Shown: positions 27,968 through 43,697 of the stretch, in pieces
Layout: each line of letters starts with the position of its first letter
Numbering within the stretch: the first letter of the stretch is position 1
From: Fulvitalea axinellae
GTDB taxonomy: Bacteria; Bacteroidota; Bacteroidia; Cytophagales; Cyclobacteriaceae
NCBI RefSeq assembly: GCF_036492835.1
Contig: NZ_AP025314.1
Coordinates: 2,210,010-2,274,009, forward strand
Length of the DNA: 64,000 nucleotides
Reading direction: 5' to 3'
Notes under the pieces: model-generated
Told to the model about the DNA's origin: nothing
Seen by the model: only the letters and a program-made list of their open reading frames with translations
Databases searched by the model: none
Made by a program: the position numbers and the translations under genes

Positions 27968-29299
27968 TTATGCGTTGATATTTATGTCGCTATTGATTCC
28001 TTGACGGATACCGATATTCGGAGATTTTCCGTTAAGAGCCAGGATATAACGGAACGATTCCATAGCGAACGAAGGCCAGCGACGTAACGGAAGCTTATTG
28101 CCTTGCGCTCCCCGGAATTCGAATATTCCGGCATCGAGGTCGGAATGTCTGCCTACTTTTTCTGTCTTTTTGCCCAAATAGCCCATCGAGGTATCACCCG
28201 GCAAGCCTACTAATCTGTCTTTTCCAAACGGAATATCCCTTATCCATTCCAACCTGCTGAGCGGAAACTCTTCGGCGCTAGGGTGATCGGAATAAATGTC
28301 TTTTTGGATACCTCTTTCTATTACGGATTCGAACGGGTCATACTCTTTGTATCCTCCACAAGCGTTGATGACAATATCCAGCCATTGTTGTGGGTTATTA
28401 CGGAACCTTATGGCTTCATCTTCGGGAAGTAGCTCGAACAATCTGCCGAAATCAGTACGGGCCATCAGCGTATCGGCGATGATTTTTGGGTATTCTACGG
28501 CTAAGTTCGCTTTGGTAAGGTCATCGTAAGTGTGGTACGGTTCGGCGAGCATTCCAAGTTGTCCCCGGCCGGCGATCAGGTAACTGGCCATCATAGTCAA
28601 AAGCCCGTGTAACTCCGGGCTATATTCCGCCCTGTCAAGATTTCGCATTACGGTAGCGCCGACTCGGGCCATATAGACGAGTGTGCTTTGGAGTTCTTTT
28701 GGCGCTTCGGATGAAGAGGGGGAGAGCAGAAACGGTATCATGGAAAGGTCAAGCCCCGAAGTGATTTGTGGTCCGCCTTCTAAGTCGGAATCTCCCGGAA
28801 ATATTACAAACTCATGATCTTCCGGGATTCCAGTTACAGCGTCCAGATGGAAGGATCGTTTACCGGAGTGGACCAGTAGTTTTTCTCCATAAACTTGAAT
28901 CTCACTCATTATTCTTTGCAACTCCATCATCCCTTCCACGCTTTCGTCCAATGGAGGATAAATGATGAATTCCAACTCCGAACCGCCCATATACGCCCGG
29001 TCGGCTTCTACCTTGAATCCGTTGTGGTTTTGCCTGCCTACTTTCTCCCTTTTGTTGAGGACGTGTCGTCTTATTTGGCCTCCTCTTTTTCCGGCGGACA
29101 TGACCTCTTGCCTTACCACTTGCCAACCCGTTTCGAATTCAAAGCCTACGGCGCATTGTATTGGCAAGTTAGATAGACTAGGGGGAGGGGGCTTCGATAT
29201 TCCGCCTCTGTTAGTGCCATCGTCTTTGCGTTGAACTGTTTCTTTCCGGTTGTCGAGTACTCTCATAACGGTCTTTGGCCCTTGGGATTCTTTGGGCAA
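27968..29299 (-). CDS. Hypothetical cytoplasmic protein
   Basis: 443 aa with no signal peptide and no recognisable motifs; an alternative start MRVLDN is 11 codons in. Codon usage is consistent with neighbouring genes. Confidence 0.5.
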   Translation of the reverse strand: MPKESQGPKTVMRVLDNRKETVQRKDDGTNRGGISKPPPPSLSNLPIQCAVGFEFETGWQVVRQEVMSAGKRGGQIRRHVLNKREKVGRQNHNGFKVEADRAYMGGSELEFIIYPPLDESVEGMMELQRIMSEIQVYGEKLLVHSGKRSFHLDAVTGIPEDHEFVIFPGDSDLEGGPQITSGLDLSMIPFLLSPSSSEAPKELQSTLVYMARVGATVMRNLDRAEYSPELHGLLTMMASYLIAGRGQLGMLAEPYHTYDDLTKANLAVEYPKIIADTLMARTDFGRLFELLPEDEAIRFRNNPQQWLDIVINACGGYKEYDPFESVIERGIQKDIYSDHPSAEEFPLSRLEWIRDIPFGKDRLVGLPGDTSMGYLGKKTEKVGRHSDLDAGIFEFRGAQGNKLPLRRWPSFAMESFRYILALNGKSPNIGIRQGINSDININA

Positions 29300-29585: not shown

Positions 29586-30239
29586 TTGTGTATGAAGGAA
29601 TTAATGTTTTTGGCTTTGTCTGGCCCAAATTTAATAGCGACGAGTTTGCTGGTTTTTGTGCTGGTATATGGTCTGGTCGCAATGTTGGGCTTGGTAGAGA
29701 TGGATTCCGTTGATATTGATTTTGATGTGGACGCCGATGCTGATGTCGATGTTGACGTCGACTCCGATGTGTCAACCGGAGGCGGAGGAATGCACGGCTT
29801 TTTGTCCTTTTTCAATTTGGGACGTTTTCCGCTTATGATTTATCTGTCGGTTTTGGCCCTGCCGTTTTGGGTGCTGTCAATTTTGATGACGGCCACATTG
29901 GCGGACCTCTCTTTGCCGATGTGGATAGGATATCTGGGCTTATTGCCTATACTGTTGATTTCAATGTTTATCGCCAAATTCCTTTCTACGCCTATCGCCA
30001 AGCTTTGGTATAAACTGGACGGGCATGAAGAGGTGACAATGGAAGGCCAAGTGTGCCATCTGTTATACAAGGCCGATTCCGAATCTCTGAGTCAGGCTGA
30101 GGTGGAATGGAGCGGGGACAAATTGCGTGTAAACGTAAAGGCTATGGATGGAAAAATTCTGAAAGAAGGAGCCAAGGCGGTAATTGTTTCGAAGGCGAAA
30201 GAAGCCGACTATTATTTGATTGACGAATTTTCTTTATAA
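29586..30239 (+). CDS. YqiJ/NfeD-like membrane protein (DUF1449-type) with acidic DV-repeat linker
   Basis: 217 aa. It has an N-terminal TM helix, an acidic tract (DSVDIDFDVDADADVDVDVDSDVSTGGGG), two more TM helices and a C-terminal OB/beta-barrel-like region. A flotillin gene lies two genes downstream. Confidence 0.7.
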   Translation: MCMKELMFLALSGPNLIATSLLVFVLVYGLVAMLGLVEMDSVDIDFDVDADADVDVDVDSDVSTGGGGMHGFLSFFNLGRFPLMIYLSVLALPFWVLSILMTATLADLSLPMWIGYLGLLPILLISMFIAKFLSTPIAKLWYKLDGHEEVTMEGQVCHLLYKADSESLSQAEVEWSGDKLRVNVKAMDGKILKEGAKAVIVSKAKEADYYLIDEFSL

Positions 30240-30299
30240 ACCTAAGTGCCGGGGAACCGTGGGGAATGGATTTTTTCTTATTCTAAAAAATACGAAAGG

Positions 30300-30755
30300 A
30301 TGAAAACGCTCCAATCTTCGAAAAGTGTCATTATTGACGCCGATGCCCGGACTCTTTGGGAGGTGCTGACAAAAGCGGATTACACCAAGGCTTATATGTT
30401 TAATTGCGAAGTGAATACCGACTGGGAAGTGGGGTCGCAGATTACTTGGAAAGGGAATTTTCAGGGCTATGACGCTTTCCAAAAAGGGGAGGTGTTGGCT
30501 TTTGAGCCCTTTGATTCCCTGTCATATTCCACTTTTGATCCAAACTTCGGTTTGGAAGACAAAGCCGAGAATTATATACATGTTGGTTATGCGTTGAAAG
30601 AGTTGGATGAAAAAGTGGAGTTGACTGTAAGCAATAAGACTTTTGACGGGGATGAAAAGCGCATGGCCCATGTGGAGCAGGGTTGGGCTATGGTGATTCC
30701 GCAGATAAAGGAGGTGGCTGAACGGATTATGCGTAAAGCTGACGAAACTGAATAA
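30300..30755 (+). CDS. SRPBCC-superfamily protein (AHSA1/START-like ligand-binding fold)
   Basis: The ORF starts at 30246, but the probable start is MKTLQSSKSV at 30300. SVIIDADARTLWEVLTKADYTKAYMF...WKGNFQGY is the typical AHSA1-like SRPBCC N-terminal pattern. Confidence 0.7.
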   Translation: MKTLQSSKSVIIDADARTLWEVLTKADYTKAYMFNCEVNTDWEVGSQITWKGNFQGYDAFQKGEVLAFEPFDSLSYSTFDPNFGLEDKAENYIHVGYALKELDEKVELTVSNKTFDGDEKRMAHVEQGWAMVIPQIKEVAERIMRKADETE

Positions 30756-30905: not shown

Positions 30906-33095
30906 ATGGACGGAATTGGAGGAGCCTTAGGGCTGACAACGATCGGTATTGTATCGTTTGTAATAATTTTCATTTTTGCTTTCATAGTTAAAATGTATAA
31001 TAAAGCCTCGCAGGGTGAGGTGTTGGTGCGTACAGGTGGTTTGGGCGGCGCTGACGCCAAACCGCGTGTTTCGGCTTCGGGACTTTTTGTGGTGCCCGTG
31101 ATTCACCGCTTGGAAAAGATGGATATCCGCGTAAAGACCATCACCATTTCGCGTACTGGAAGCGAAGGTTTGGTTTGTAAGGATAACCTCCGCGCGGATA
31201 TCAAAGTGACCTTCTTCGTACGTGTAAACGTAGACGAAGTTGCGCAGGTGGCTAAATCTATCGGTTGTGATCGCGCTTCGGATCCTGACACTTTGAAAGA
31301 CCTCTACGAACCGAAATTCGCCGAGGCCCTGAAGACTGTAGGTAAGCAATTCGAATTCGTGCAACTTTACACCGCCCGTAAGGAGTTCAACTTGGCGATT
31401 GTTAACACTATCGGCACGGACTTGAACGGTTATCGTTTGGAAGACTGTGCGATTGACTTCTTGGAGCAGACGCCGGTTGACAAGCTGAATGACAGCAACA
31501 TCTTGGATGCCGAAGGTATCAAGAAGATTACGGAGTTGACGGCCAAGCAGACCACACAGGCCAACTTGATCCAGCGTGACAAGGAAAAAACCATCAAGCA
31601 ACAGGACGTGGAAGCTCAGGAGACTATCCTGAACTTGGAGCGCCAGAAGGTGGAAGCCGAAGAGCGTCAGCGTAAGGAAATCGAAACGATGCGTGCCCGC
31701 GAGCAGGCCGAGATCATGAAAATCCGTGAAGAGGAGCGTTTGAAGTCTGAAAAGGCCCGCATCGAAACGGAAGAGGCCGTGCAGATCGCAGAAGAGAATC
31801 GCTTGCGTGAAGTATTGGTGGCTTCTAAGAATAAAGAAAAGACCGACGCCGTGGAATCGGAGCGAGTGGATCAAGCTCGTCTCTTGGAAGAGACCGAGAA
31901 AGAGCGTATCGTAGAATTGGCTCAGATCGAAAAGGAGCGCGCTTTGGAGCAAGAGCGTAAGAATATCCAGGATGTGATTCGCGAGCGTGTTTCTGTAGAG
32001 AAAGCCGTGGTGGCCGAGCAAGAGAAGACCAAAGACTTGCAAGCCATTGCCGAAGCGGACCGTAACAAAGCCGTGGCGCTTAAGAACGCTGAACGCGACG
32101 CCGAGGCCAGCTTGGTGAAAGAGATCAAGGAAGCCGAAGCAGCCAAAGAAGCGTCCAAGTTAGAATCGGAGCGCATGATGATCGAGGCGAAAGCCAAGGA
32201 ATCCGCCGCCGTTCACGACGCCGAGGCGATGAAGACATTGGCCGACGCCACAGCCGCCGAAGCCGCCGCTTTGGGTATGTCCGAAGCTCAGGTGATGGAA
32301 GCCAAAGCCTCCGCCAAGGAGAAGGAAGCCGAAGCCGAAGCTGCGATGGTGGAACTTACCGCCATGGCCGAAGCCAAAGGAATCGAGGCCAAAGGAGTGG
32401 CGCAAGCCGAAGCGGACCGTGGCCAAGGCAATGTGGACGCCGAAGTCTTGAAGAAGAAAGGTTTGGCGCAAGCCGAGGTTATCGACGCGCAGGCTGACGC
32501 CAAAGAAAAGCAGGCGATGATCGACGTGAAGGTGCTCAACGAGAAGTTGGCTGTGGAAGCGGCCGGCATCGAGAAGAAAGCCGAAGCGATGAAGGTTCTC
32601 GACCCGGCCTCTGTGGCGCACGAGGAATTCCGTTTGCGTTTGGAGCAGGACAAGGAAATCGAACTCGCTCGCATCGACGCTCAGAAAATCGTTGCGGCCG
32701 AGCAGGCTGGCGTATTGGGCGAGGCGCTCAAAGCTTCGAACATCGACATCATCGGTGGCGAGTCTATGTTCTTCGACAAGTTGACAAGCTCAATCACTAC
32801 CGGTAAGGCCATCGACAAAGTGGTGGGCAACAGCCAGACTCTGACCGAAGTGAAGGACAGATTCTTCAACGGTGGAAACGGCAACGACTTCAAAGCCAAT
32901 TTCCGTTCGTTCATCAGCCAATTTGGCGTATCGTCGGATGATCTCCGCACGATGACCATCTCGGCCTTGTTGATGAAACTAACTCAAAACGCCAAGAGCG
33001 ACAGTGACCTGAACACTATCCGTCAGCTCGAAAATCTCTCGGACACCATGGGTGTAGGTGACAAAACGCCGGAGAGTCTCGGACTCCACGAATAG
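30906..33095 (+). CDS. Flotillin-family (SPFH/band-7) protein, YqiK-like, with very long EA/KE-rich coiled coil
   Basis: 729 aa. It has an N-terminal TM helix, an SPFH domain (GEVLVRTGGLG...VVPVIHRLEKMDIRVKTI...LVCKDNLRADIKVTFFVRVN), then approx. 400 aa of E/A/K/R heptad-rich sequence. Confidence 0.9.
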   Translation: MDGIGGALGLTTIGIVSFVIIFIFAFIVKMYNKASQGEVLVRTGGLGGADAKPRVSASGLFVVPVIHRLEKMDIRVKTITISRTGSEGLVCKDNLRADIKVTFFVRVNVDEVAQVAKSIGCDRASDPDTLKDLYEPKFAEALKTVGKQFEFVQLYTARKEFNLAIVNTIGTDLNGYRLEDCAIDFLEQTPVDKLNDSNILDAEGIKKITELTAKQTTQANLIQRDKEKTIKQQDVEAQETILNLERQKVEAEERQRKEIETMRAREQAEIMKIREEERLKSEKARIETEEAVQIAEENRLREVLVASKNKEKTDAVESERVDQARLLEETEKERIVELAQIEKERALEQERKNIQDVIRERVSVEKAVVAEQEKTKDLQAIAEADRNKAVALKNAERDAEASLVKEIKEAEAAKEASKLESERMMIEAKAKESAAVHDAEAMKTLADATAAEAAALGMSEAQVMEAKASAKEKEAEAEAAMVELTAMAEAKGIEAKGVAQAEADRGQGNVDAEVLKKKGLAQAEVIDAQADAKEKQAMIDVKVLNEKLAVEAAGIEKKAEAMKVLDPASVAHEEFRLRLEQDKEIELARIDAQKIVAAEQAGVLGEALKASNIDIIGGESMFFDKLTSSITTGKAIDKVVGNSQTLTEVKDRFFNGGNGNDFKANFRSFISQFGVSSDDLRTMTISALLMKLTQNAKSDSDLNTIRQLENLSDTMGVGDKTPESLGLHE

Positions 33096-33099
33096 TCTG

Positions 33100-33180
33100 A
33101 GTAAAGAGTAAAGGGTAAAGCGTAAAGAGTATGGTGTCGTAACTTCGTCGCTTTTACTCTTTGCGCTTTGTTGTTTTTTA
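33100..33180 (+). terminator. Imperfect hairpin / terminator-like structure after the flotillin gene
   Basis: gtaaagagtaaagggtaaagcgtaaagagta ... tactctttgcgctttg forms an imperfect inverted repeat followed by a T-rich stretch. It is built from the same short motif repeated in the downstream leader. Confidence 0.35.
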
Positions 33181-33317
33181 ACGTTGATAAGCGTGTGATT
33201 TAAATTCTAAATCAATCCTTGACGGGATGTGGATGGAACGAGCCTCATTTCAGTTTTAAATTTGTGACTGATTCGTTTTGGGCGCGTTATGGATTGGGAT
33301 TTCAGCACTCTGATTTT

Positions 33318-33383
33318 TTACTCTGGACTCTTTACGCTTTACTCTGTACCAAACTTATTACTCTGGACTCTTTACGCTTTACT
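33318..33383 (+). repeat. Two direct copies of a 26-bp motif (tactctggactctttacgctttactc) in the leader of the giant ATPase gene
   Basis: Exact copies lie at 33318-33343 and 33358-33383. The reverse complement (gtaaagcgtaaagagt) occurs at approx. 33124-33140 inside the upstream hairpin region. Confidence 0.8.
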
Positions 33384-33393
33384 CAAAAAAAAC

Positions 33394-36300
33394 ATGTCGG
33401 AAACTACCGAAAAACAAGATATACAACTGGACGGCGGTACATACGAAGTCCTGAAAACGCGTTTGCGGAAGGAGAGCGAAGTTCTGCGTGAACGCTTGAA
33501 TGTTCTGAACGAAAACCGGAAAGACGTTTTCGGCGCCATCGACCTCTCGTTGTTGGCCACCGAACGCGTCACTACCGAATACAATTGCGTGCCTTGGGAC
33601 ATGTGTGCCATAGGCGATCATTTCCTGTTCGGCTATAACGTGCATATGGGGCTGAAGGTGGAGTACAAGCCTTCGGACGTATTCAGCATGTTTCGCTACG
33701 ACGACCTGTCTTTCGTACACGAACCGTTGGACATGCTACAGGACGAAGCCTTTGTCAAGGATTTCAAGAACCTTTACAAATATTACAAAGGCACCCGGTT
33801 CGTCAAATTCGCCCGGATGGGTCAATACCTGCATATGGTTTTCCGCATTGGGCAGGGATTGGACGATATCAAGACATTTAAATGGCTGGTTAGCGAAGGG
33901 GAATTGCGTTATGTGGACGCCCGGAGCGATCACGAGCTGAAATACCCTTCCCAACACGAGTTTGAATGGATCAAGACTACCCGTGAGCAGTTTTGCGAAG
34001 GCGAACACCCGCATATTTCCATCGAGGACATCGTTTTTGTGGAGACGGTAGGCGGTGACTTGACCATAAAAGTAGAGGATAATACCGAAGACGGAAAAGG
34101 AATTTATAACGAGCTTGTCCAGCATAAGGAACAGCGATTGGAAGACGCCGAGGTGTATTACGCCATCTTGGGACATCTTGTTATACTGAAAATAAAACCC
34201 TATCAGGAAGAATTCCGGTATTTTGTCTATAACGCCAAGCTTCAGGAAGCAATTCGGATAGACGCGCTGGAGGATAGCTGTATCCTGTTGCCCGAAAACC
34301 ACGGTTTAATCTTCTCCAACGGCTATTATTTGCAGTCCGGCGACTATAAGCAGTTCGACAATAACCTGTCGGATATGCTGTACGAGCGTTGCGTGCCTTC
34401 GCCTAATGGCGAAGACTTTATGTACGTATTTTACAATCGCCGGAAAGGGATTTACCTGTTGCTTCACTATAACCTGATTGCGCAGAAAGTGGAAAGCCCG
34501 GCGATTTGCCACGGTTACTCGACCTTCGAAAACGGGGAAATGTGCATGTTCCGGGCCGATGACGAACCGAAGAAGCACCATGTTGTCCAGATTTGGCAAA
34601 CCCCTTACGTTGGGCCTGACTTCCAGCTGGAAGGGCAGTCGGATTCTTTCCTGTATAAGATCGGGAACAAGGATATTGTAAAAGCTATGGCCGAGTGTCA
34701 GGCTTTGTTGAATCTGGTCGGGAAAGAGGAAGCGTACCGAGACCAATATTTGGACATCATCAAGATGGCCACCGACTCCTTGGACACGTATCACTGGCTG
34801 GGCAAACCCGAGGCTTCGGAGTTGGCGGAGCCTCTGAAATCTATCCGTGAGACGGCGGTTGCGGCCGTGGACGAATACGAGAAAGTCCGCAAAATTCAAC
34901 AGCATACGAATACGGAGGTCAAGCGGGTATCTAGGGAGGCTGATGATCTTATCGCTAGGCTTAAGCGTGAGGTCCCTCAGCTGATAGGTGACTTCGTCCA
35001 GAACCTGACCGACCTGCGCAAAGTTCGTGGCGAAGTGATTTCCCTGAAGGAACTCCGCTATGTGGACGAGTCCAAGGTGGAGAAGTACGAAGCTTCGCTA
35101 GCCGATTTCGCCGATCAGGTATCGAAAGATTGCGTTCGTTTCCTTTTGAAACCCGAAGCCTTGGAGCCATACGCCGAGCAGGTGGAGGCCATCCGTAAAG
35201 AGGTGGAGAAAGTCACGAAAGTGGTGGAGGCTGACGCCTTAGATGAGCGCATCACGGCGGTGTCGAACGAATTGGAGATGTTGATCGAGACGGTCAGCAA
35301 CCTCAAGATCGACGACGCCACGGAAGTCACTCGCATCATCGACAGCATCTCGGGCATTTATTCCAGCTTCAACCAGATCAAAGCCTCGCTCAAGCGCAAG
35401 CGCAAAGAGCTGATGGGCGAGGAGGGACGCGCCGAGTTCAACGCCCAGATAAAGCTGGTGGACCAAGGCGCCGTCAATTTCCTCGACCTCTGCGACACGC
35501 CCGAGAAGTGCGAGGAATACATGACCAAGCTGATGGTTCAGCTGGAGGAATTGGAAGGCAAGTTCTCGGAGTTTGACGAGTTTATCGATAAGATTTCCGT
35601 CAAGCGCGACGAGCTTTACAACGCCTTCGAATCCAAGAAAATCACTTTGGTGGAGGCCCGCAACCGCCGCGCCACCACCTTGCAGAAAGCGGCCGAGCGT
35701 ATCATCGCCTCGGTAAAGAGCCGTCTTTCTCGCTTCAAGGAAGTATCCGAAATCAACGGCTATATGGCCTCGGATATGATGGTGGAAAAAGTCCGTGGCA
35801 TCGTGCAGGAACTCTTCGATCTTGGCGATTCCGTCAAGGCCGACGACATCCAAAGCCGACTCAAAACCGCCAAGGAAGACGCCCTGCGTCAGCTCAAGGA
35901 CAAGTCCGAACTCTTCGTGGGCGGCGACAACATCATCCGTTTCGGTACTTATGACTTCGCCGTCAATACCCAGCCTTTGGACCTTACGATGGTCTATCGC
36001 GAGGGCCGGATGTTCTACCATCTAAGCGGAACGAACTTCTTTGAGGAAGTGACCGATGAGGAATTCAACGCCAGCCGTCCCGTTTGGGATCAGGCCACCG
36101 TGGCCGAAAACCGCGAGGTATACCGTGGCGAATACCTGGCCTATTTGATTTTGAAAGAAGCCGAAGCCAAGACGCTTTCCCTTTCGGAAGAAGAAGGCGT
36201 ATTGAGCGTATCCGACCTCTCGGATATGGATCATGACGCCCTGATGGCCGTGGTGCAGCGCTATATGGCCCTGCGCTATAGCGAAGGCTACGTGAAAGGC

Positions 36301-38295
36301 GTGCATGACCACGACGCCACCAAGATTTTGGAAGCCCTCCTTGAGATGCAGACCCGTGTGGGGCTCCTGCGTTACGGCGCCTCTACCCGCGCCTTGGCCG
36401 GTTTTTACTGGAACCATTGGGAAGAGAAGGGCCAGCGTGAACTGTTCGAAGCGCAGATACACAGTGCTGGGATTATCCTGCGGGCCTTCCCCGATACGAC
36501 GGAGTTCGAAGCCTTGAAAACCGAGCTCGGCGAACGCCTGCAAGCCTGTGCCGAAGCGACGGAACTTTTCGTCGTGCGTGATTTTGCAGAAGCGGCCGAT
36601 TACCTTTTCGAACAAGTGGCCCTGAACGAAGCCTTTGTGGTGGACGGCAAGGCCTATGACCTGCGCAAGCGTTTCGAATCCGAACTGCGTGGACGCAAGG
36701 TCGATACCGCATTCGGTGAGTCCGTAGCCAAGTTGGAAGATCCGGCCTTGAAATACAGGCTCGTGCGCAACTGGCTCAAGGCCTTCACGCAGGACGCCGG
36801 CCTTGAGGCCGAAATACGTTTCGTGGACGAAGTGGCCGTGATGTTGCTCGATGGCGAAACCGATAAGAAAAGCGTGCGCGAGGTACGCCTCGAACGTGAA
36901 CTGGAAGAGATGCAGGGCGCCCACGACCGTCTGGCCGAACAGCGCTACGGCTTGCACTTCCACGACTTCAACCGCCGTCTCGGCGACTACGCCAGCGACA
37001 CCGTGCCGATGTACGGACGCTTTCAGGAACTGAAACAGCAGATGTCCGCCGACTTCGCCGAGGCCCTGCGCCTGAGTGAGTTCAAACCGCGCGTGCTGTC
37101 CTCCTTCGTACGGAACCAATTGCTCGACAAGGTCTATCTGCCCATCATCGGCGCCAACCTCGCCAAGCAGATCGGTACCGCCGGCGAAGGCAAGCGCACC
37201 GACCTCATGGGCATGCTCCTGCTCATCTCGCCTCCGGGCTACGGTAAGACGACCATCATGGAATACGTCGCCAACCGCCTCGGGCTGGTCTTCATGAAGA
37301 TCAACGGCCCCGCGCTCGGGCATGAAGTGGTGTCCGTGGACCCCGCTCAGGCGGGCAACGCCGGCGTTCGTCAGGAATTGGAGAAGTTGAACCTCGCCTT
37401 TGAGATGGGCGACAACGTGATGATCTACCTCGACGACATCCAGCACTGTAACCCCGAATTCCTGCAGAAATTCATCTCGCTCTGTGACGGCCAGCGAAAA
37501 ATCGAGGGCGTGTACAAGGGCAAGACCAAAACCTACGACTTCCGTGGCAAGAAAGTCTGCGTAGTGATGGCCGGCAACCCATACACCGAGAGCGGCGACA
37601 AGTTCCGCATCCCGGACATGCTCGCCAACCGTGCCGACATCTACAACCTCGGCGACATCCTGGGCGAATCGGATCACGAGTTCAAGCTCTCGTATATCCA
37701 GAACTGCCTCACCTCTAATGCGACCTTGGCCAAACTGGCGGCCAAGAGCCACAAAGACGTGCTCAGCGTGCTCAAGATTGCCGAGACCGGCAACCGCGAA
37801 GGCGTGGAATTCGAGGCCAACCACTCGGCCACCGAGATAGGCGAGTACACAGAGGTGCTCAAAAAGCTCCTCTACGCCCGCGACGTCATCCTGAAGGTGA
37901 ACCTGGAGTACATCCGCTCGGCGGGACAGGCCGAAGAGTTCCGTACCGAACCGCCGTTCAAACTGCAGGGCTCGTACCGCGATATGAACAAGATAGCCGA
38001 GAAAGTGGTGCCCGTGATGAACGACAAGGAACTGCGCACGCTTATGGTCTCGCACTACGAGCGCGAAGCCCAGACCCTGACGGCCGGCGCCGAAGCCAAC
38101 CTGCTCAAATTCCGTGAGCTGATAGGCATCGCCACCGACGACGAGCTCACCCGCTGGGAAGAGATCAAGGAAGTCTTCCGCAAAAAGCAGAAGCATACCC
38201 TATCAGGCGGCAACCAACTGGGCCAAATGCTGGAACAGGTGGAACGCATGGCGGAGAGCCTTGGTAGGATTGCTGGGGAGAGGGAGAGTGTTTGA
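33394..38295 (+). CDS. Giant (approx. 1630 aa) protein with a single C-terminal AAA_5/MoxR-type AAA+ ATPase module; N-terminal approx. 1250 aa novel
   Basis: The ORF is open from 33289, but the likely start is MSETTEKQD at 33394, after the repeat leader. Walker A is LLLISPPGYGKTTIMEY, Walker B is VMIYLDDIQHCNPEFLQKFISLCD, and the sensor/arginine region is VCVVMAGNPYTESGDKFRIPDMLANRADIYNL. The rest is rich in coiled-coil-like segments. Confidence 0.75.
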   Translation: MSETTEKQDIQLDGGTYEVLKTRLRKESEVLRERLNVLNENRKDVFGAIDLSLLATERVTTEYNCVPWDMCAIGDHFLFGYNVHMGLKVEYKPSDVFSMFRYDDLSFVHEPLDMLQDEAFVKDFKNLYKYYKGTRFVKFARMGQYLHMVFRIGQGLDDIKTFKWLVSEGELRYVDARSDHELKYPSQHEFEWIKTTREQFCEGEHPHISIEDIVFVETVGGDLTIKVEDNTEDGKGIYNELVQHKEQRLEDAEVYYAILGHLVILKIKPYQEEFRYFVYNAKLQEAIRIDALEDSCILLPENHGLIFSNGYYLQSGDYKQFDNNLSDMLYERCVPSPNGEDFMYVFYNRRKGIYLLLHYNLIAQKVESPAICHGYSTFENGEMCMFRADDEPKKHHVVQIWQTPYVGPDFQLEGQSDSFLYKIGNKDIVKAMAECQALLNLVGKEEAYRDQYLDIIKMATDSLDTYHWLGKPEASELAEPLKSIRETAVAAVDEYEKVRKIQQHTNTEVKRVSREADDLIARLKREVPQLIGDFVQNLTDLRKVRGEVISLKELRYVDESKVEKYEASLADFADQVSKDCVRFLLKPEALEPYAEQVEAIRKEVEKVTKVVEADALDERITAVSNELEMLIETVSNLKIDDATEVTRIIDSISGIYSSFNQIKASLKRKRKELMGEEGRAEFNAQIKLVDQGAVNFLDLCDTPEKCEEYMTKLMVQLEELEGKFSEFDEFIDKISVKRDELYNAFESKKITLVEARNRRATTLQKAAERIIASVKSRLSRFKEVSEINGYMASDMMVEKVRGIVQELFDLGDSVKADDIQSRLKTAKEDALRQLKDKSELFVGGDNIIRFGTYDFAVNTQPLDLTMVYREGRMFYHLSGTNFFEEVTDEEFNASRPVWDQATVAENREVYRGEYLAYLILKEAEAKTLSLSEEEGVLSVSDLSDMDHDALMAVVQRYMALRYSEGYVKGVHDHDATKILEALLEMQTRVGLLRYGASTRALAGFYWNHWEEKGQRELFEAQIHSAGIILRAFPDTTEFEALKTELGERLQACAEATELFVVRDFAEAADYLFEQVALNEAFVVDGKAYDLRKRFESELRGRKVDTAFGESVAKLEDPALKYRLVRNWLKAFTQDAGLEAEIRFVDEVAVMLLDGETDKKSVREVRLERELEEMQGAHDRLAEQRYGLHFHDFNRRLGDYASDTVPMYGRFQELKQQMSADFAEALRLSEFKPRVLSSFVRNQLLDKVYLPIIGANLAKQIGTAGEGKRTDLMGMLLLISPPGYGKTTIMEYVANRLGLVFMKINGPALGHEVVSVDPAQAGNAGVRQELEKLNLAFEMGDNVMIYLDDIQHCNPEFLQKFISLCDGQRKIEGVYKGKTKTYDFRGKKVCVVMAGNPYTESGDKFRIPDMLANRADIYNLGDILGESDHEFKLSYIQNCLTSNATLAKLAAKSHKDVLSVLKIAETGNREGVEFEANHSATEIGEYTEVLKKLLYARDVILKVNLEYIRSAGQAEEFRTEPPFKLQGSYRDMNKIAEKVVPVMNDKELRTLMVSHYEREAQTLTAGAEANLLKFRELIGIATDDELTRWEEIKEVFRKKQKHTLSGGNQLGQMLEQVERMAESLGRIAGERESV

Positions 38296-38314
38296 TATAG
38301 TGTGCTTCAATATA

Positions 38315-38366
38315 AAAAAGCTGGCACTGAAGTGTTGTCAAGTTACTTCAGTGCCAGCTTTTTTCA
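38315..38366 (+). terminator. Strong rho-independent terminator
   Basis: aaaaaagctggcactgaagt-gttgtcaagtt-acttcagtgccagctttttt is a perfect 14-bp stem followed by a T-run. Confidence 0.75.
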
Positions 38367-38492
38367 TTTTATAGGTTGTATTTTAAGAAAGTTTATTCAT
38401 TTGTATGGTTTTAACTTAAGCTGAATAGACCTGTAAGATTTCTTGATGAGTAATTTTAACATTGAAAATAAATCATTTAATTCACGTTAAGT

Positions 38493-39233
38493 ATGCGGAG
38501 ATTTATTTTCTATGAATATCTTCTGAAAATATTGTCAGTTTTTTATTTATTAGGTTCATTTTTTATGGTTGAAATTATCCAAGATAAGTTAGATATCAGG
38601 TTGGATTTTGACCCTGATGTTGAAGATCCATCAAGGTTGTTTCGTGCTTTTGCAGAGATTATTGATAGTGTAAATTCGCTGGATTTACAAATTGCACGAT
38701 CAATAGATCCTAATGTGGAAAATAAACTCTTTTTGAAAGATATAGAGAAAGGTTCACTCATTGCGAAATTAGAAAAATGGATAACTTTAGATCCGTCTAA
38801 TGAACTCAAGATCACTCCACTACCAGAGTCAAATGATGTTAGAGAATATCTTAATGAAAGTCGGCAAGTTAGTTTGAAGAGTCTCAATTCGGACTCTCAA
38901 GATCTTGAATCATTAGAAAGACTGACTGCGAAAATAGATGATATAGCTAAATCAAAAAATATTGATAAATACTTTAACTATAAAAAGGTTGAGGTGCTTC
39001 CGGTTGCAGAAAATCTAAACAAGATATCACATGCGTCAAATAAGTTAGCGGATAAAGAAACCTTTGATATTATTTCTAATCATGACTCCACCGAATTAAA
39101 TAATACCTCACCCAAGATCAATATTGAAGACATTAAAACAGCTTTAACAAGCGAAGTTATTGAGAATACAACAACAGAGGTGTATAAAATTAAGAAACCA
39201 GACTTCTTAGGTGAATCCAGGGCCTGTTCATAA
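38493..39233 (+). CDS. Hypothetical protein, AT-rich (island cargo)
   Basis: 246 aa. It is low-GC and Asn/Lys/Ile/Asp-rich with an N-terminal hydrophobic segment. It lies immediately upstream of the ISAs1 transposase. No motifs were recognised. Confidence 0.45.
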   Translation: MRRFIFYEYLLKILSVFYLLGSFFMVEIIQDKLDIRLDFDPDVEDPSRLFRAFAEIIDSVNSLDLQIARSIDPNVENKLFLKDIEKGSLIAKLEKWITLDPSNELKITPLPESNDVREYLNESRQVSLKSLNSDSQDLESLERLTAKIDDIAKSKNIDKYFNYKKVEVLPVAENLNKISHASNKLADKETFDIISNHDSTELNNTSPKINIEDIKTALTSEVIENTTTEVYKIKKPDFLGESRACS

Positions 39234-39425
39234 AGCGTCTGAGAAAATAGGAGCTTACCACCATGAATTGCAATTTTGAATTACCACAAACAAACTTGCG
39301 GTTGATGGATAAGCTCCCAAAAAAACGAAATTAATCAATACTACCTCCAGTTACAACTAAGCCTTGTAGACCACAGGAACGCCAAGGGGAAGAAGCACGA
39401 ACTGGCTTTTGTCGTACTGTGCTTT

Positions 39426-40460
39426 ATGCTTGCCGTATTCAGGAGCGGAGGAAAACTCAATTTCTCACAGATTCACCGCTCAATGAAAAGGGATCACGAT
39501 TATTGGCGGGATTTCACAGGTGGTAAAAGTAAGTGTTGTGTGAGCCGTGTTCAACTCCGAAGAATCCTGAAGGATACAGATATACAGGGACTTAAGGCGG
39601 TTGCTGAAACCACTTTTAACGCAAACGAAACTATAGATCCGCAAGCTCTTCAATGGTTTTCGATTGACGGTAAAGAACTCCGGGGGAGTATCGACAAATC
39701 CTCAGGGGACAAACGCGGGGAAAGCGTGGTTCTGGTTACCGCGCAAGAAGATAAAACCAGCAAGGTTGTAGGCTACTATTCGGGTACCAAAGACTCCGAG
39801 CGGGGTATTGTCGACGAATATTTTGAAACTCAATCCGGTCTTTCGGGAACGGCTTATACGATGGATGCCCTTCACAATAATTCCGGGTTACTGGAGGGAA
39901 TCCATGGAAAACGGGGCGTCTACCTTTCACAAATAAAAGGGAACCAGAAAATACTCCGTGAAGACCTTCGAGACATGGAGCGGAGATCAGAATGTTTGGA
40001 TTATAAAAAGACCGTCGAAAAGGGCCATGGCAGGATCGAAACAAGAATATACCGGACCTACCCGGTGGAAACGGGATGCTTGGAGCGTCGCTGGTCGAAT
40101 ACGGGGATGAGCTGCTTCATACGGGTAGACCGTACCCGTAAAGTCGTTAAAACAGGAAAAACATCAAGCGAGACATCATACTACGTCAGCAATATAAATA
40201 CCGGTCTTATTGATCAATACAACTTGCCTAACGCCGTAAGGGGACACTGGTCCGTAGAGGCAAACAATAATATGAGGGATACGAACTTCGGAGAGGACGG
40301 GTTAAGGAGCCTTGTCTCTGGTATACAGCAAAGTGTTTCATGTATTTTGACTGCTGTAATGAATATTTTGATCCAAAGGAACGCTGGTGAAAATATGAAT
40401 GAAATGCGAGAGGAGATCGTAGCAGATATAAATTCTATTCACCAATATTTTAATAGATAG
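39426..40460 (+). CDS. ISAs1-family transposase (DDE); canonical start missing, frame open from approx. 39306
   Basis: ISAs1 signatures are present: SIDGKELRGS, QIKGNQ, EKGHGRIETR, SYYVSN, GHWSVEANNNMRDTNFGED. The upstream in-frame residues (LVDHRNAKGKKHELAFVVLCF) still match the conserved ISAs1 N-terminal block, but there is no ATG before an in-frame stop at 39303. Confidence 0.75.
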   Translation: MLAVFRSGGKLNFSQIHRSMKRDHDYWRDFTGGKSKCCVSRVQLRRILKDTDIQGLKAVAETTFNANETIDPQALQWFSIDGKELRGSIDKSSGDKRGESVVLVTAQEDKTSKVVGYYSGTKDSERGIVDEYFETQSGLSGTAYTMDALHNNSGLLEGIHGKRGVYLSQIKGNQKILREDLRDMERRSECLDYKKTVEKGHGRIETRIYRTYPVETGCLERRWSNTGMSCFIRVDRTRKVVKTGKTSSETSYYVSNINTGLIDQYNLPNAVRGHWSVEANNNMRDTNFGEDGLRSLVSGIQQSVSCILTAVMNILIQRNAGENMNEMREEIVADINSIHQYFNR

Positions 40461-40699
40461 ACCTTTATGAACAAGCCCTGTAGGTGAATCCCAATGGGTT
40501 TTCAAACATGGAAGGTCTTCTATTCAAGCTAAAATACTCGATGTGAAATGGTTAAAAACATTTTTGTCAGGTCATATTAAGGTTGCTCCAGGGGATTCTT
40601 TAAAAGTATTGGTAAAGACTAGTGCTAGCTACAATAAAAATAGGGATCTAATCAATGAAGACAGAAATATTGTTAAAGTAATTGATATAATCCATAAAA

Positions 40700-41116
40700 A
40701 TGAGCAATCAAAAAAATCACCTAGTATCTCTGTCTGAGTTACTTTTTACCGTATTACCCGTAATAATCATATCGATCATATTTTTGTTTGAAGAAAAGTA
40801 TGGGAAATTATTTTATAATACTGAGTGGGCTATTTGTGCAATTATTTTATTTGGTCAGTCAATTGTAAAATTCTCCAGTGGTACAAGTAATTCTCAAAAG
40901 CGTTTCACTTGGCAGAAAATTGCATTGATTATAACTTTAATTATAGTTTTAGGGTTGATACCCTCTATTATTTTTCTTGTTATTAACATTCTTCATAAGG
41001 AAGAAGATCCAAGCTTTTTTTTGCATATGGTTCAAATTATTTGGGCTTTACTAAGTGGAGTTGTGTTTTTTTATATAGGTGGGCTTGGCCAAAAATTTTT
41101 AGAAGAAAAAAACTAA
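40700..41116 (+). CDS. Small polytopic membrane protein (hypothetical, AT-rich)
   Basis: 138 aa with four hydrophobic helices. It is low-GC. Confidence 0.4.
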   Translation: MSNQKNHLVSLSELLFTVLPVIIISIIFLFEEKYGKLFYNTEWAICAIILFGQSIVKFSSGTSNSQKRFTWQKIALIITLIIVLGLIPSIIFLVINILHKEEDPSFFLHMVQIIWALLSGVVFFYIGGLGQKFLEEKN

Positions 41117-41129
41117 TTTTTCTTGACCC

Positions 41130-41190
41130 CGGCTTGCGTCAGTGTGTTTAACGGCCATCGCAAGCATCTTTGCTTGCGACGGCGATGGGA
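41130..41190. repeat. Solo REP-like palindromic element
   Basis: ccggcttgcgtcagtgtgtttaacggccatcgcaagcatctttgcttgcgacggcgatgg shares the gcttgcg...tttaacggccatcgcaag head of the larger repeat units downstream. It carries the hairpin gcaagcatctttgcttgc. Confidence 0.7.
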
Positions 41191-41228
41191 GTTAGTGTCG
41201 TGAGATTGTTTCTTAAATCTACTTTGTT

Positions 41229-41624
41229 TTGAAAATGAGAGTATTGAATGTCGTTGTTGCCTTATGTTTTGGATTTCTGAGCGCTAGTGTTTTTTTCGGA
41301 TGTAATTCATCCAAGATAGTTTCCCAGAAAGCGGAGACGGTTCCTATTGAAAGAATTTTGGATCCAACGAGTAAGTACATAAAGCTTTACATGGGGTTTA
41401 CGGTTACTAAATTTGACACTTTAGCGAATATCAGGGTAGTGAAAGTTATAGGACCTATTGTGGACTCCTTGTTTGTTGATAGTTTGAGTGTCTATGCAGA
41501 GAAGCGTATCAGGGAAGAAAGGTGGACAGCCGGAAAACAGAGAGGGAGAAAAGTTGATGTCGATATCATGTGGCCCCTTCAGTTTGATGCTGAGGAATGG
41601 GGTGGAAAGTTTAGTGATGATTGA
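41229..41624 (+). CDS. Hypothetical small lipoprotein
   Basis: 131 aa with signal peptide and lipobox (LSASVFFGCNSS). It is bracketed by REP-like elements. Confidence 0.5.
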   Translation: MKMRVLNVVVALCFGFLSASVFFGCNSSKIVSQKAETVPIERILDPTSKYIKLYMGFTVTKFDTLANIRVVKVIGPIVDSLFVDSLSVYAEKRIREERWTAGKQRGRKVDVDIMWPLQFDAEEWGGKFSDD

Positions 41625-41638
41625 GTAATTGTTCCCGG

Positions 41639-41805
41639 CTCCAGCTAACCGTATTTAACGGCCATCGCAAGTGTCCACACTTGTGATTTTCATATTAGCA
41701 AGCGTCCACGCTTGCCCGTTCAGTTTTTTCAACCTGGTGTAGGCAAGCGAGGACGCTTGCGGTTTGTATAGTCACAAGTGAAGACACTTGCGACGGCTGT
41801 TAGCC
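41639..41805. repeat. REPIN-like unit 1 (two inverted REP doublets, four hairpins)
   Basis: tttaacggccatcgcaagtgtccacacttgtga...agcaagcgtccacgcttgc...gcaagcgaggacgcttgc...cacaagtgaagacacttgcgacggctgttag. The second half is an inverted copy of the first. Near-identical copies lie at 42190, 42901 and 43698. Confidence 0.8.
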
Positions 41806-41806
41806 T

Positions 41807-42139
41807 TTAGATGACGATCACATCCAGCATACCGCATTGTTCTGTGTAGTAGTCAATTGCGCTACTGTATAAGTAATGTTCAGGGCTAGATACAATGCCC
41901 GCTTTTACCGGATTTTCGTGGATGTATTTGATCTTTTGTCGAACTACTTTAGGCGTGAATAACTCAATAGGGTGGTTGTCTTGTCTCCAGAGTTGGAAGT
42001 GTTTGTTGTTGCTGTTCTTTTTGCCGGCATAGCGGAACGCTCGAAGCATCCATTCCTTTCGGCTCTCCGTTTTGCTGTTGTGTAGTGTCTCGTGAATCTT
42101 TTTGGAAGTGAAGCCCTTCAGGTCCCGAATGGTTTCCAA
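41807..42139 (-). pseudogene. Truncated RAYT (REP-associated tyrosine transposase) copy, C-terminal two thirds only
   Basis: 110 aa, near-identical to residues approx. 75-184 of the intact copy at 43072..43626, with the YIHENPVKAGIVSSPEHYLYSS tyrosine motif retained. The HuH-containing N-terminus is replaced by REPIN sequence: after gtgggcgtg the sequence jumps to attgctcccccggctcgcgccagcatgtttaacgg. Confidence 0.75.
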
Positions 42140-42189
42140 AGTTGGGGAGTGTCTTTAGCGCGTCGCGCCACCAAGTGGGCGTGATTGCT

Positions 42190-42358
42190 CCCCCGGCTCG
42201 CGCCAGCATGTTTAACGGCCATCGCAAGTGTCCACACTTGTGATTTTTATATTAGCAAGCGTCCTCGCTTGCCCGTTCAGCATTTCCAATCTGGAGTGTG
42301 CAAGCGAGGACGCTTGCGGTTTGTATAGTCACAAGTGAAGACACTTGCGACGACTGTT
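42190..42358. repeat. REPIN-like unit 2
   Basis: cgcgccagcatgtttaacggccatcgcaagtgtccacacttgtgatttttatattagcaagcgtcctcgcttgc...gcaagcgaggacgcttgcggtttgtatagtcacaagtgaagacacttgcgacgactgttgg. Confidence 0.8.
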
Positions 42359-42951
42359 GGCGTGGAAAGGCTAAAAATATCTTTGTGAAATACAGGTTAA
42401 ATATAGAATCGTTGAGTCAATTGGAGCCATGCAAGAAGAGTTTCGATTATGACTCAGAGTATGATGACTTTAGTTCAATCTCTTCCGATATATCTGATGT
42501 TCTACATGAAATGGGAGTGGTGTTCCAGCTTCAAGTTGATAATGTTGAAATTCCGATCTTCATATGGGGAGACTTTGAATATTTTCTTGATGGATTTTAT
42601 GAGTATGCGGGATTTCTTTTCTCTAATCAGAAAAGCGAATTCATGTTTGAGTTACTTGAGCAAGGCATAGAGACACAAGTTTGTTTTTCGATTGAAGATG
42701 ATAGGGTAAAAGTAAGTGAAGAGAATTTTTATATGGGAAGTTATTATGTGAAAATGAATGAATTGAGATCTGACTTTAAGCGGTTCTTTAAAGAGTTTAT
42801 TTCACTAATTGATCTACTTATTCCAGGGATAAGTTTACATACTTGGTTTAAGCAATGGCGAGAGGGTATTCAGTCAATTATAAATGATGTCCACGGCTCT
42901 CCGGCTTGCGCCAGCTTGTTTAACGGCCATCGCAAGTGTCCACACTTGTGA
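42298..42951 (+). CDS. Hypothetical acidic protein whose predicted ends are encoded by REPIN sequence (real start probably internal, e.g. approx. 42511)
   Basis: 217-aa ORF. The central part is AT-rich with D/E/F/Y-rich sequence and no motifs. The first approx. 20 and last approx. 17 codons lie inside REPIN units 2 and 3, so the termini are probably artefactual or altered by repeat insertion. Confidence 0.3.
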   Translation: MQARTLAVCIVTSEDTCDDCWRGKAKNIFVKYRLNIESLSQLEPCKKSFDYDSEYDDFSSISSDISDVLHEMGVVFQLQVDNVEIPIFIWGDFEYFLDGFYEYAGFLFSNQKSEFMFELLEQGIETQVCFSIEDDRVKVSEENFYMGSYYVKMNELRSDFKRFFKEFISLIDLLIPGISLHTWFKQWREGIQSIINDVHGSPACASLFNGHRKCPHL

Positions 42952-43070: not shown

Positions 43071-43071
43071 T

Positions 43072-43626: not shown

Positions 43627-43697
43627 TCTTCTGAATGGTCAAAGACTGTTCCTTATTGTGGGTTTATACACATTGGGAAGAATGTGATATATATGCC

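Follow-up and report, generated by a model that had tools for sequence, protein, structure and literature searches.

A giant AAA+ ATPase of the DUF3686 family encoded downstream of YqiJ-like and flotillin genes in Fulvitalea axinellae

Genes and features of the locus

The window analysed here is a 64,000-nucleotide stretch of Fulvitalea axinellae DNA (NZ_AP025314.1, positions 2,210,010 to 2,274,009, forward strand). Within it, a gene for a giant AAA+ ATPase lies directly after genes for a YqiJ-like membrane protein and a flotillin (Table 1), as the original prediction had described, and the protein of about 1630 aa that it had proposed is a real gene product. The open reading frame spans 33289..38295 on the + strand, with a conserved start at ATG 33394 (MSETTEKQ...) preceded by an A-rich tract, and NCBI holds an identical 1633-aa protein under the name "DNA repair ATPase [Fulvitalea axinellae]". 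The Kyte-Doolittle maximum of the ATPase (19-residue mean) is 1.06, and therefore no transmembrane segment is predicted in it, whereas the YqiJ-like protein and the flotillin are membrane proteins. An antisense 724-aa open reading frame (36022..38196, - strand) was rejected as a codon-usage effect: 25 of 300 synonymous-codon shuffles gave an antisense open stretch as long or longer.

Table 1. Features of the ATPase locus, in window coordinates
Feature	Residues	Nucleotides	Strand	Remarks
YqiJ-like membrane protein, 217 aa		29586..30239	+	First gene of the unit; three hydrophobic segments
AHSA1/SRPBCC-family protein		30246..30755	+	Pfam AHSA1, E=7.5e-15
YqiK-type flotillin, 729 aa		30906..33095	+	Assigned with a 12-orthologue profile against E. 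coli YqiK
Flotillin-to-ATPase spacer, 298 nt		33096..33393	+	Repeat-rich, strongly structured
Spacer 38-nt inverted repeat		33098-33135 / 33348-33385		
Spacer heptamer array		33099-33131		
Spacer hairpin		33117-33131 / 33155-33169		Followed by a T-run
Spacer 30-nt direct repeats, two		33315-33344 and 33355-33384		
Giant AAA+ ATPase gene, DUF3686 family		33394..38295	+	1633 aa plus stop; predicted soluble
Beta-rich domain	52-402	33547..34599	+	About 27 strands; core of DUF3686 (31-467, nt 33484-34794)
Helical rod	419-840	34648..35913	+	Includes DUF7902 (588-672, nt 35155-35409)
Middle region	841-1235	35914..37098	+	AF2 model, fold unclassified
AAA+ module	1236-1470	37099..37803	+	MoxR/midasin/dynein-like
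Walker A, SPPGYGKTT	1279-1287	37228-37254	+	GYGKT at 1282-1286
Walker B, IYLDDIQH	1344-1351	37423-37446	+	D-D 1347-1348 invariant; end of beta3
Pre-sensor-1 beta-hairpin	1369-1374, 1377-1382	37498-37539	+	AF2 strands
MAGNPYTESG	1392-1401	37567-37596	+	Sensor-1 N1395; end of beta4
LANRADIYNL	1410-1419	37621-37650	+	R1413, arginine-finger candidate; end of alpha4, just before beta5
C-terminal helical region	1471-1633	37804..38292	+	
Near-invariant motif RTEPPFKLQGSYR		37942-37986		In the C-terminal region; sensor-2 candidate

The YqiJ-like protein matches Pfam YqiJ_N (E=7e-5) and E. coli YqiJ by BLASTP (E=6e-9), with transmembrane-like windows near residues 6-42, 81-108 and 107-140. The flotillin has a single hydrophobic segment, at its N-terminus, and gave no useful match against Pfam (including Band_7), NCBIfam or PDB sequences; its YqiK-type identity, a profile-level assignment, is settled only through comparison with E. 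coli YqiK (hhalign probability 100%, E=6.6e-40, 413 columns). Its layout is an N-terminal membrane anchor, a divergent SPFH domain, a long Ala/Glu-rich coiled coil and a C-terminal domain, and its orthologue on pQBR103 does match Band_7 (9.3e-11). The gap between the YqiJ-like and flotillin genes is 666 nt in the window, as against less than 50 nt or an overlap in most related loci and 120-620 nt in a few, and the AHSA1/SRPBCC gene within it is probably a local insertion outside the conserved unit.

The spacer ahead of the ATPase gene is full of repeats, in agreement with the repeat-rich leader noted earlier; its motif is present in 6 copies within the window, where 0.2 would be expected, and its RNA fold has an energy of -93 kcal/mol (z=-4.3). 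On the other side of the gene, GC content is 0.36-0.43 and there are a DDE transposase-like ORF, a Y1_Tnp ORF and an HTH_38 ORF. The location on the border of a mobile island thus holds for the window, with AT-rich DNA and transposase-like ORFs downstream, but it is specific to this genome and not a trait of the family. No conserved downstream neighbours of the ATPase gene were found across related loci.

A catalogued ATPase family

The protein had been described as an orphan with an N-terminus matching no family, and neither description survives. Pfam DUF3686 (PF12458) covers residues 31-467 over profile positions 2-448 of 448 (E=1e-183; 611 bits against a cut-off of 25), and DUF7902 (PF25472) covers residues 588-672 (E=3e-28; 98 bits against a cut-off of 26). 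Among 8,000 candidates scored, 5,466 homologues reached E<=1e-10; full-length homologues number more than 5,400 in at least 12 phyla, and the N-terminal domain matches 720 clusters formed at 50% identity. By these sequence matches the ATPase is a member of a large and already catalogued Pfam family. The N-terminal region does therefore have homology to a catalogued family, although the stronger case of a characterised family does not strictly apply, DUF3686 being uncharacterised.

Homologues in Pseudomonas, Streptomyces, Deinococcus, Vibrio and Proteus are still conserved over the full length at identities as low as 35-42%, and some megaplasmids carry family members. Among the best 120 matches listed for each of two protein searches, the architecture is an N-terminal DUF3686 domain, a helical region with DUF7902 and one C-terminal AAA module. 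Full-length DUF3686 representatives are 1600-1900 aa long with the domain N-terminal, a range into which the window protein fits; C-terminal additions of 150-250 aa occur in Planctomycetota and Verrucomicrobiota homologues, in one case with ankyrin repeats.

Structure was predicted from an alignment of the proteins returned by the two protein searches, and mean pLDDT in the C-terminal half of the ATPase is 90.8. Residues 52-402 are predicted to form a divergent beta-propeller-like domain and residues 419-840 a rod of spectrin-repeat-like bundles, the latter consistent with the long coiled-coil-like stretches that had been read from the sequence. A propeller-like head on a spectrin-like rod is typical docking and spacer architecture. 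The middle region is modelled as a small beta domain (residues ~847-885), a helical domain and a long helix leading into the ATPase module; it is the least conserved part of the protein, with a mean top-residue frequency of 0.41 against 0.84 in the AAA core.

Properties of the AAA+ module

Walker A, Walker B, sensor-1 and arginine-finger motifs all lie where the original prediction placed them. The module is also the only one of its kind in the protein, as had been claimed: the modelled stretch 841-1235 consists largely of helices and shows no second alpha/beta core. There is no variation in Walker A, Walker B, N1395 or R1413, and 96 positions within residues 1236-1425 show 95% conservation or more in an alignment of 86 sequences, a degree of constraint which shows strong purifying selection on the ATPase site.

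Classification of the module by predicted structure gave a MoxR/midasin/dynein-like assignment, its structural neighbours, CbbQ, NorQ, midasin and dynein, being remodelling ATPases. Features of AAA+ clade 7, the pre-sensor-II-insert clade of MoxR, midasin, dynein, MCM and the chelatases, are present in the canonical motif positions and in the pre-sensor-1 hairpin, which falls between helix 1354-1364 and strand 1388-1394 in a part of the AF2 model with pLDDT above 90. At the helix-2 insert position, between beta2 and alpha2, the model has only a conserved loop (1305-1322) without a regular hairpin. One deviation is the second acidic residue of Walker B, which is Glu in MoxR, McrB and dynein and an invariant Asp (DDIQH) in the window ATPase. 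No aromatic pore-loop motif was seen after beta2 of the module. Given the invariant Asp and the missing aromatic pore-loop motif, the ATPase may be a slow switch rather than a processive unfoldase.

Gene order in related genomes

A flotillin homologue lies upstream on the same strand in 75 of the 78 related loci for which at least 2.5 kb of upstream DNA was available. The flotillin-to-ATPase distance is within 400 nt in 52 loci, 401-1000 nt in 17 and 1-2.4 kb in 6, and small inserted genes sampled in these gaps (loci L051 and L011) belong to the PD-(D/E)XK_3 and DUF559 families. In most related loci a YqiJ-like gene precedes the flotillin gene. The resulting three-gene unit occurs in Bacteroidota, Planctomycetota, Verrucomicrobiota, Desulfobacterota, Kiritimatiellota and Omnitrophota, and likewise in Clostridia, Acidobacteriota, Pseudomonadota, Actinomycetota and Deinococcota; in two Clostridia loci (L072 and L078) the flotillin ORF abuts or overlaps the ATPase start. 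Gene order, with overlapping or close genes, is thus conserved across phyla. Loss of this synteny in related genomes had been named beforehand as the observation that would argue against a flotillin link, and the order YqiJ-like, flotillin, ATPase is instead kept.

No flotillin gene was found in the fetched DNA of three loci (L024, L037 and L045) despite ample upstream DNA, and in E. coli K-12 no ATPase gene follows yqiK, where sibD/ibsD are found instead. Neither gene is therefore an obligatory companion of the other.

Immediately upstream of the YqiJ-like gene, 21 Bacteroidota loci carry PspA/IM30 (Pfam E=4e-42) together with a CesT_Tir_1 gene. A PspA gene is also upstream on pQBR103, and about a quarter of the loci have a linked PspA gene; neither a PspA nor a CesT gene is present at the window locus. 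When all ORFs of the loci were clustered, the only recurrent neighbours were flotillin, YqiJ-like, PspA, CesT-like and HTH proteins, with no conserved VWA partner gene near the ATPase. At one locus, an unrelated VWA giant protein is encoded six genes from the ATPase.

Discussion

The locus is less novel than first thought, in that the family is already in Pfam and the operon type was described in 2024 from comparative genomics (Ravi et al., mSystems, PMC11237479). The published operon shares its three core genes and their order with the window locus, its ATPase likewise combines a propeller-like domain, a helical rod and an AAA+ module, and abbreviated versions without PspA are reported, which the window locus matches. 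The window differs from the full operon in having no PspA/CesT and in its additional AHSA1/SRPBCC gene and 298-nt repeat-rich spacer. That description occupies one paragraph of contextual inference, similar to ours, and does not include the ATPase clade, a structure or an experiment (PMC11237479). Our literature search found no experiments on an ATPase of the DUF3686/DUF7902 family, and neither papers about the SPFH proteins of P. aeruginosa nor papers about how ESCRT evolved mention a DUF3686 ATPase.

Because the gene almost always follows the flotillin operon, we consider the ATPase to be probably an ATP-driven partner of the flotillin scaffold. Stated in full, the reading that we prefer is of a soluble, probably ring-forming MoxR-type AAA+ protein that works with the upstream YqiK-type flotillin and the YqiJ-like protein with three transmembrane segments, and in this full form we hold it with about even confidence. 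SPFH proteins (flotillin, HflK/C, QmcA) form membrane-attached cages, and CbbQ, NorQ and RavA assemble as hexamers. The C-terminal AAA+ modules would likewise form a hexamer from which each subunit would extend an N-terminal arm of ~1235 residues, made up of the beta-propeller-like head, the spectrin-like rod and the middle domain. The arms would dock onto the flotillin (SPFH) cage from its cytoplasmic side, and ATP binding and hydrolysis would drive assembly, opening, disassembly or turnover of the scaffold, or work on proteins confined within it. In loci with a linked PspA gene, flotillin microdomains would in this way be coupled to PspA-based membrane repair. Physical contact between ATPase and flotillin, assembly into hexamers and the direction in which the scaffold is remodelled are all elements that we infer. 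Counting against the reading are the loci in which one gene stands without the other, the lack of a conserved VWA/MIDAS partner of the kind that characterised MoxR ATPases use, and the Walker B Asp and absent aromatic pore loop of the module.

A bolder version, in which DUF3686 ATPases are the missing ATP-driven regulator of bacterial SPFH/flotillin cages, is offered tentatively, as possible though doubtful: six arms would grip the dome, a hexameric MoxR-type motor would open or recycle it and, in the long operon, lesions would be handed to PspA. Six propeller-plus-rod arms superficially recall the beta-propeller/alpha-rod proteins of membrane coats. If true, it would give a flotillin scaffold, for the first time in any organism, a dedicated energy-consuming cycle, and bacteria a counterpart to the disassembly machines of Vps4 or NSF type. 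Being very widespread, strongly conserved and encoded nearly always just after a YqiK-type flotillin, the ATPase offers a concrete handle on the role of bacterial flotillin and on how SPFH cages assemble, open and are recycled.

Adjacency of the genes, taken by itself, would fit a protein that acts on flotillin as well as one recruited by flotillin for another target, and two alternatives bear consideration. CbbQ and NorQ, the closest structural relatives, serve other enzymes as maturation or activase chaperones, and the partner of the HflK/C cage is the AAA+ protease FtsH. The ATPase might correspondingly be a client-directed chaperone or extractase with the flotillin cage as its workbench, where confined membrane proteins or cofactors would be unfolded, extracted or inserted, in parallel with FtsH inside HflK/C, minus the protease, or with MoxR-type maturation factors. 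The HflK/C-FtsH precedent for pairing SPFH proteins with an AAA+ machine favours it, as does a report that S. aureus FloA/NfeD stabilise unfolded proteins in membrane microdomains (PMC11222466). However, the ATPase showed no recognisable protease, VWA/MIDAS or substrate-binding domain, its neighbourhood has no conserved client gene and its module no canonical pore loop; we judge this explanation unlikely, even though the genomic data alone fit it as well as they fit remodelling of the flotillin scaffold. Somewhat more improbable still is a remodeller of PspA (bacterial ESCRT-III-like) polymers, a functional analogue of Vps4, with flotillin and YqiJ acting as no more than a membrane platform for PspA recruitment. 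The PspA/IM30 and CesT_Tir_1 genes of the Bacteroidota loci and the PspA of pQBR103 speak for it, as does a report that B. subtilis SPFH proteins link PspA to the membrane. A Vps4-like ATPase moreover appears to be absent in bacteria according to a 2025 review (PMC7619361), and the bacterial Vps4 role would therefore be unfilled.

Two further proposals were considered. The name "DNA repair ATPase", used by Pfam and NCBI, has spread to many family members in public databases, and we find it to be a label without support: apart from the name itself there are only weak partial RuvB_N matches, confined to the Walker A region and below the Pfam cut-off (E=5e-4), set against the absence of any DNA-binding, helicase or nuclease domain found in the protein and of a conserved repair-gene neighbour. 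A function in DNA repair is scarcely credible. A phage-defence or abortive-infection ATPase, the suggestion made from the sequence at the outset, we regard as very improbable. A large protein with a single AAA module would suit it, family members on some megaplasmids would too, and a defence island could account for its place beside a mobile, AT-rich island, with transposase-like genes adjoining it in this genome. But elsewhere the three-gene unit stands in varied, mostly housekeeping contexts with nothing conserved downstream, the protein has no effector domain, and PADLOC-DB v2 yielded no meaningful match, the best being a coiled-coil stretch of LmuB (E=6.7e-4, 16 bits) and the others short Walker A matches. 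No relatives were found in 2.9 million viral contigs and 50,697 phage genomes.

MoxR proteins such as CbbQ, NorQ and RavA are about 270-500 aa long, are typically paired with a VWA/MIDAS protein and, where characterised, act via that partner; the window ATPase has 1633 aa, of which ~1235 are additional N-terminal residues, has no conserved VWA neighbour, and shares 14% sequence identity with CbbQ. Like HflK/C-FtsH and the prohibitin-m-AAA protease pair, it would join an SPFH scaffold, genetically or physically, to an AAA+ machine at the membrane, but unlike HflK/C-FtsH it has neither a transmembrane segment nor a match to a protease family. As in Vps4/CdvC-ESCRT-III, a soluble AAA+ gene lies beside one for a membrane-remodelling polymer in that quarter of the loci with PspA, a member of the ESCRT-III superfamily. 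Vps4 is, however, a classic-clade ATPase of about 430 aa with an MIT domain, whereas the window ATPase is of a MoxR-like clade, has no MIT domain in Pfam, and has flotillin, not PspA, as its family's near-constant neighbour. Midasin/Rea1 and dynein heavy chains concatenate six AAA modules in each chain, and the single module found here would need oligomerisation. The two membrane-protein genes are homologous to E. coli yqiJ-yqiK, with E. coli YqiK at 553 aa being shorter than the ATPase-linked flotillins of about 650-780 aa.

Conserved gene order

Gene order was quantified in 86 loci, comprising 80 from species-representative genomes, the first five of eight obtained by other routes, and the window. 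HMMs of the two upstream proteins, flotillin and YqiJ-like, were run on every ORF of the loci. A same-strand flotillin homologue lies upstream of the ATPase in 75 of the 78 loci whose upstream DNA extends for 2.5 kb or more, at a distance of up to 400 nt in 52 loci, 401-1000 nt in 17 and 1-2.4 kb in 6, which bears out the flotillin link of the original prediction; no flotillin gene was found in the other three of the 78 (L024, L037, L045). The flotillin ORF abuts or runs into the start of the ATPase gene in two Clostridia loci (L072, L078). The YqiJ-like gene lies 5' of flotillin in most loci, and in most of the loci examined other than the window the pair is <50 nt apart or overlapping. All-against-all clustering of neighbour ORFs yielded only three further recurrent neighbours, each upstream: PspA/IM30 (21 loci, all Bacteroidota, plus the Pseudomonas megaplasmid pQBR103), CesT_Tir_1 (16 loci) and a divergent HTH_3 regulator (19 loci). 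It yielded none downstream.

The window holds a short form of the unit, with PspA absent throughout its 64 kb. Its flotillin is divergent and without a Pfam match; the pQBR103 orthologue matches Band_7 (9e-11), and a 12-sequence flotillin profile aligns with E. coli YqiK (hhalign probability 100%, E=6.6e-40). For the small membrane protein of the unit, the E. coli match is YqiJ. E. coli yqiJK is not followed by an ATPase gene.

On pQBR103 (L003, NC_009444.1 85-97 kb) the three-gene unit sits right behind a yjf-type membrane-stress cluster (PspA/IM30, rhomboid, DUF2491, DUF350, DUF1190 and a glutathionylspermidine-synthase-like gene). Small selfish-looking genes occur within the flotillin-ATPase gap of L051 (7522-7941) and 5' of the ATPase in L011 (818-1258), whose contig is too short to reach flotillin; these inserts belong to the PD-(D/E)XK_3 and DUF559 families. 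The gap exceeds 400 nt in ~20 further loci.

Family membership and architecture

The ATPase gene is real and was correctly located. All motifs first quoted for it are present, and its flanks are as described: YqiJ-like and flotillin genes upstream, a repeat-rich spacer, and low-GC transposase-like ORFs downstream. It occupies a single plus-strand ORF (33289..38295); because the alignment of relatives and an identical 1633-aa NCBI protein agree, we place the start at ATG 33394 (MSETTEKQ...), just 3' of an A-rich tract. The 35 codons 5' of this ATG are unconserved and fall inside the repeat region.

The protein is not the orphan that had been proposed: matches to DUF3686 (PF12458, Pfam text "ATPase involved in DNA repair") and DUF7902, together with thousands of relatives, refute this. 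At least 5,466 of 8,000 candidates scored are relatives with E<=1e-10, and all of the best 120 of these are full-length. A profile search gave a like result in Planctomycetota, Kiritimatiellota, Desulfobacterota, Clostridia and Acidobacteriota, and among plasmids tblastn turned up relatives of full length, at 35-42% identity, in Pseudomonas (pQBR103), Streptomyces, Nonomuraea, Deinococcus, Vibrio, Photobacterium, Proteus and Halomonas. When only the N-terminal domain served as query, an exhaustive search returned 720 clusters at 50% identity, whose complete members are all ~1600-1900 aa with the domain N-terminal. Judged from such comparisons, DUF3686 ATPases share one ancient, fixed architecture. 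This catalogued family is large, and the Fulvitalea ATPase is an ordinary representative of it; the locus itself is of low novelty.

A C-terminal extension of 100-350 aa without a Pfam match is present in many of the members from Planctomycetota, Verrucomicrobiota, Pseudomonas and Deinococcus (C-terminal ends cited: proteins P0121, P0132, P0183; loci L047, L003, L005). One member, P0121 (Desulfobacterales HSG16), has C-terminal ankyrin repeats. Another, P0195 (eukprot g33011.t1, 1711 aa, 54% identity), comes from a eukaryotic protein set and may be bacterial contamination of the assembly.

Residues 1-840 were modelled with AlphaFold2 from an alignment of 72 sequences (mean pLDDT 86.6); the long N-terminal arm is predicted to comprise a propeller-like head followed by a spectrin-like rod. 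The model of residues 801-1633 (mean pLDDT 90.8, pTM 0.79) runs from a small beta domain through a helical domain and one AAA+ core to C-terminal helices. The AAA module matches PF00004 (1e-7) and AAA_5 (3e-5), and its core has the highest mean top-residue frequency in the protein (0.84, vs 0.41 in the middle domain). The ATPase has no hydrophobic stretch of sufficient length for a TM helix (top 19-residue Kyte-Doolittle mean 1.06). We take the motor to be a soluble, strongly selected, single-module MoxR-type ATPase, the type originally named. Its Walker B has an invariant Asp-Asp (DDIQH), which resembles DnaA more than MoxR, and no aromatic pore-loop motif was found after beta2 of the core. 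These two features suggest that the ATPase is slow or acts as a switch, and does not unfold substrates processively.

Features of the window and of the ATPase
Feature	Position	Strand	Remark
443-aa ORF	27968-29299	-	divergent from YqiJ-like gene; no Pfam match
YqiJ-like gene	29586-30239	+	
AHSA1/SRPBCC gene	30246-30755		extra, between YqiJ-like and flotillin genes; Pfam E=7.5e-15
Flotillin gene	30906-33095	+	
Antisense ORF	30927-32042	-	371 aa
Spacer	33096-33393		298 nt
GTAAAGN heptamer array	33099-33131		spacer
Terminator-like hairpin, then T-run	33117-33131 / 33155-33169		spacer
Two 30-nt direct repeats	33315-33344, 33355-33384		spacer
ATPase gene	33394-38295	+	1633 aa
Antisense ORF	35239-36021	-	260 aa
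Antisense ORF	36022-38196	-	724 aa
AT-rich region	38296-45000		GC 0.36-0.48
DDE transposase-like ORF	39426-40460		weak Pfam match
IS200-like Y1_Tnp ORF	43072-43626	-	
HTH_38 ORF	44077-44679	-	
N-terminal helix	residues 14-46		AlphaFold2 model
DUF3686	residues 31-467		Pfam, E=1e-183
Beta-rich domain, ~27 strands	residues 52-402		AlphaFold2 model
Long helices	residues 419-840		AlphaFold2 model
DUF7902	residues 588-672		Pfam, E=3e-28
Walker A SPPGYGKTT	residues 1279-1287		
Walker B IYLDDIQH	residues 1344-1351		
Beta-hairpin between alpha3 and beta4	residues 1369-1382		model; pre-sensor-1 hairpin position
MAGNPYTESG motif	residues 1392-1401		
LANRADIYNL motif	residues 1410-1419		

Possible functions

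SPFH proteins assemble membrane-attached cages, and the AAA+ protease FtsH partners the HflK/C cage. MoxR ATPases are ring-shaped remodelling chaperones, one of which, RavA, docks on a large oligomer via an extension. The ATPase shows near-constant, co-transcription-like linkage to a YqiK-type flotillin and a YqiJ-type 3-TM protein and, in Bacteroidota, frequent linkage to PspA besides. We propose that its subunits would form a ring whose arms dock onto a flotillin/YqiJ assembly, with ATP then spent on assembling, opening or recycling that scaffold, a mechanism whose chances we put at about even. A close relative of this proposal, in which the ATPase acts on proteins confined by the flotillin scaffold, we consider unlikely; a Vps4-like role on PspA, which fewer loci fit, is possible and a little less probable again.

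We find little support for a function in DNA repair: its sole support is the database name (the identical NCBI protein is called "DNA repair ATPase [Fulvitalea axinellae]"), while neither a DNA-related domain or neighbour nor supporting literature was found. Phage defence, raised in the original prediction, likewise has little support: PADLOC gave no meaningful match, no relatives were found in IMG/VR or phage genomes, the downstream context varies from locus to locus, and the mobile island beside the ATPase gene is peculiar to the Fulvitalea genome. The ATPase family offers experimenters a direct way into the workings of bacterial flotillins.

Exactly this operon type was described by comparative genomics by Ravi, Anantharaman et al. 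(mSystems 2024, PMC11237479), occurring with or without CesT/Tir-PspA and with abbreviated versions widely distributed. In the literature we found no experimental study of the operon or ATPase and no paper naming DUF3686. New here are the quantified synteny, the assignment of the motor to the MoxR clade, the predicted spectrin-like rod, and the finding that the ATPase lacks a VWA partner, a TM segment, a protease domain and viral relatives.

Spacer, base composition and downstream region

The flotillin-ATPase spacer is long (median ~120 nt in relatives). Its heptamer array, when reverse-complemented, matches the direct repeats, and the two form a 38-nt inverted repeat around ~212 nt, which ends 9 nt upstream of the ATG. 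As RNA the spacer folds at -93 kcal/mol (z=-4.3). It may represent a MITE-like insertion, or a structure through which ATPase translation is regulated.

GC is 0.51-0.59 across the flotillin and ATPase genes (31000-38000) vs ~0.42-0.47 in most of the window, and GC3 climbs along the ATPase gene, averaging 0.63 over its first third and 0.80 over its final third. We rejected the antisense ORFs inside these two genes as shadow ORFs of codon usage (GC3 = 0.72); for the ATPase gene, 25 of 300 synonymous-codon shuffles reach an antisense open stretch no shorter than the 724-aa ORF (mean 540 aa). In the 1-kb bin directly past the ATPase stop codon GC falls to 0.39. The AT-rich region there, which also has several family-less ORFs, resembles mobile or degraded-IS DNA and adjoins the operon in this genome only.
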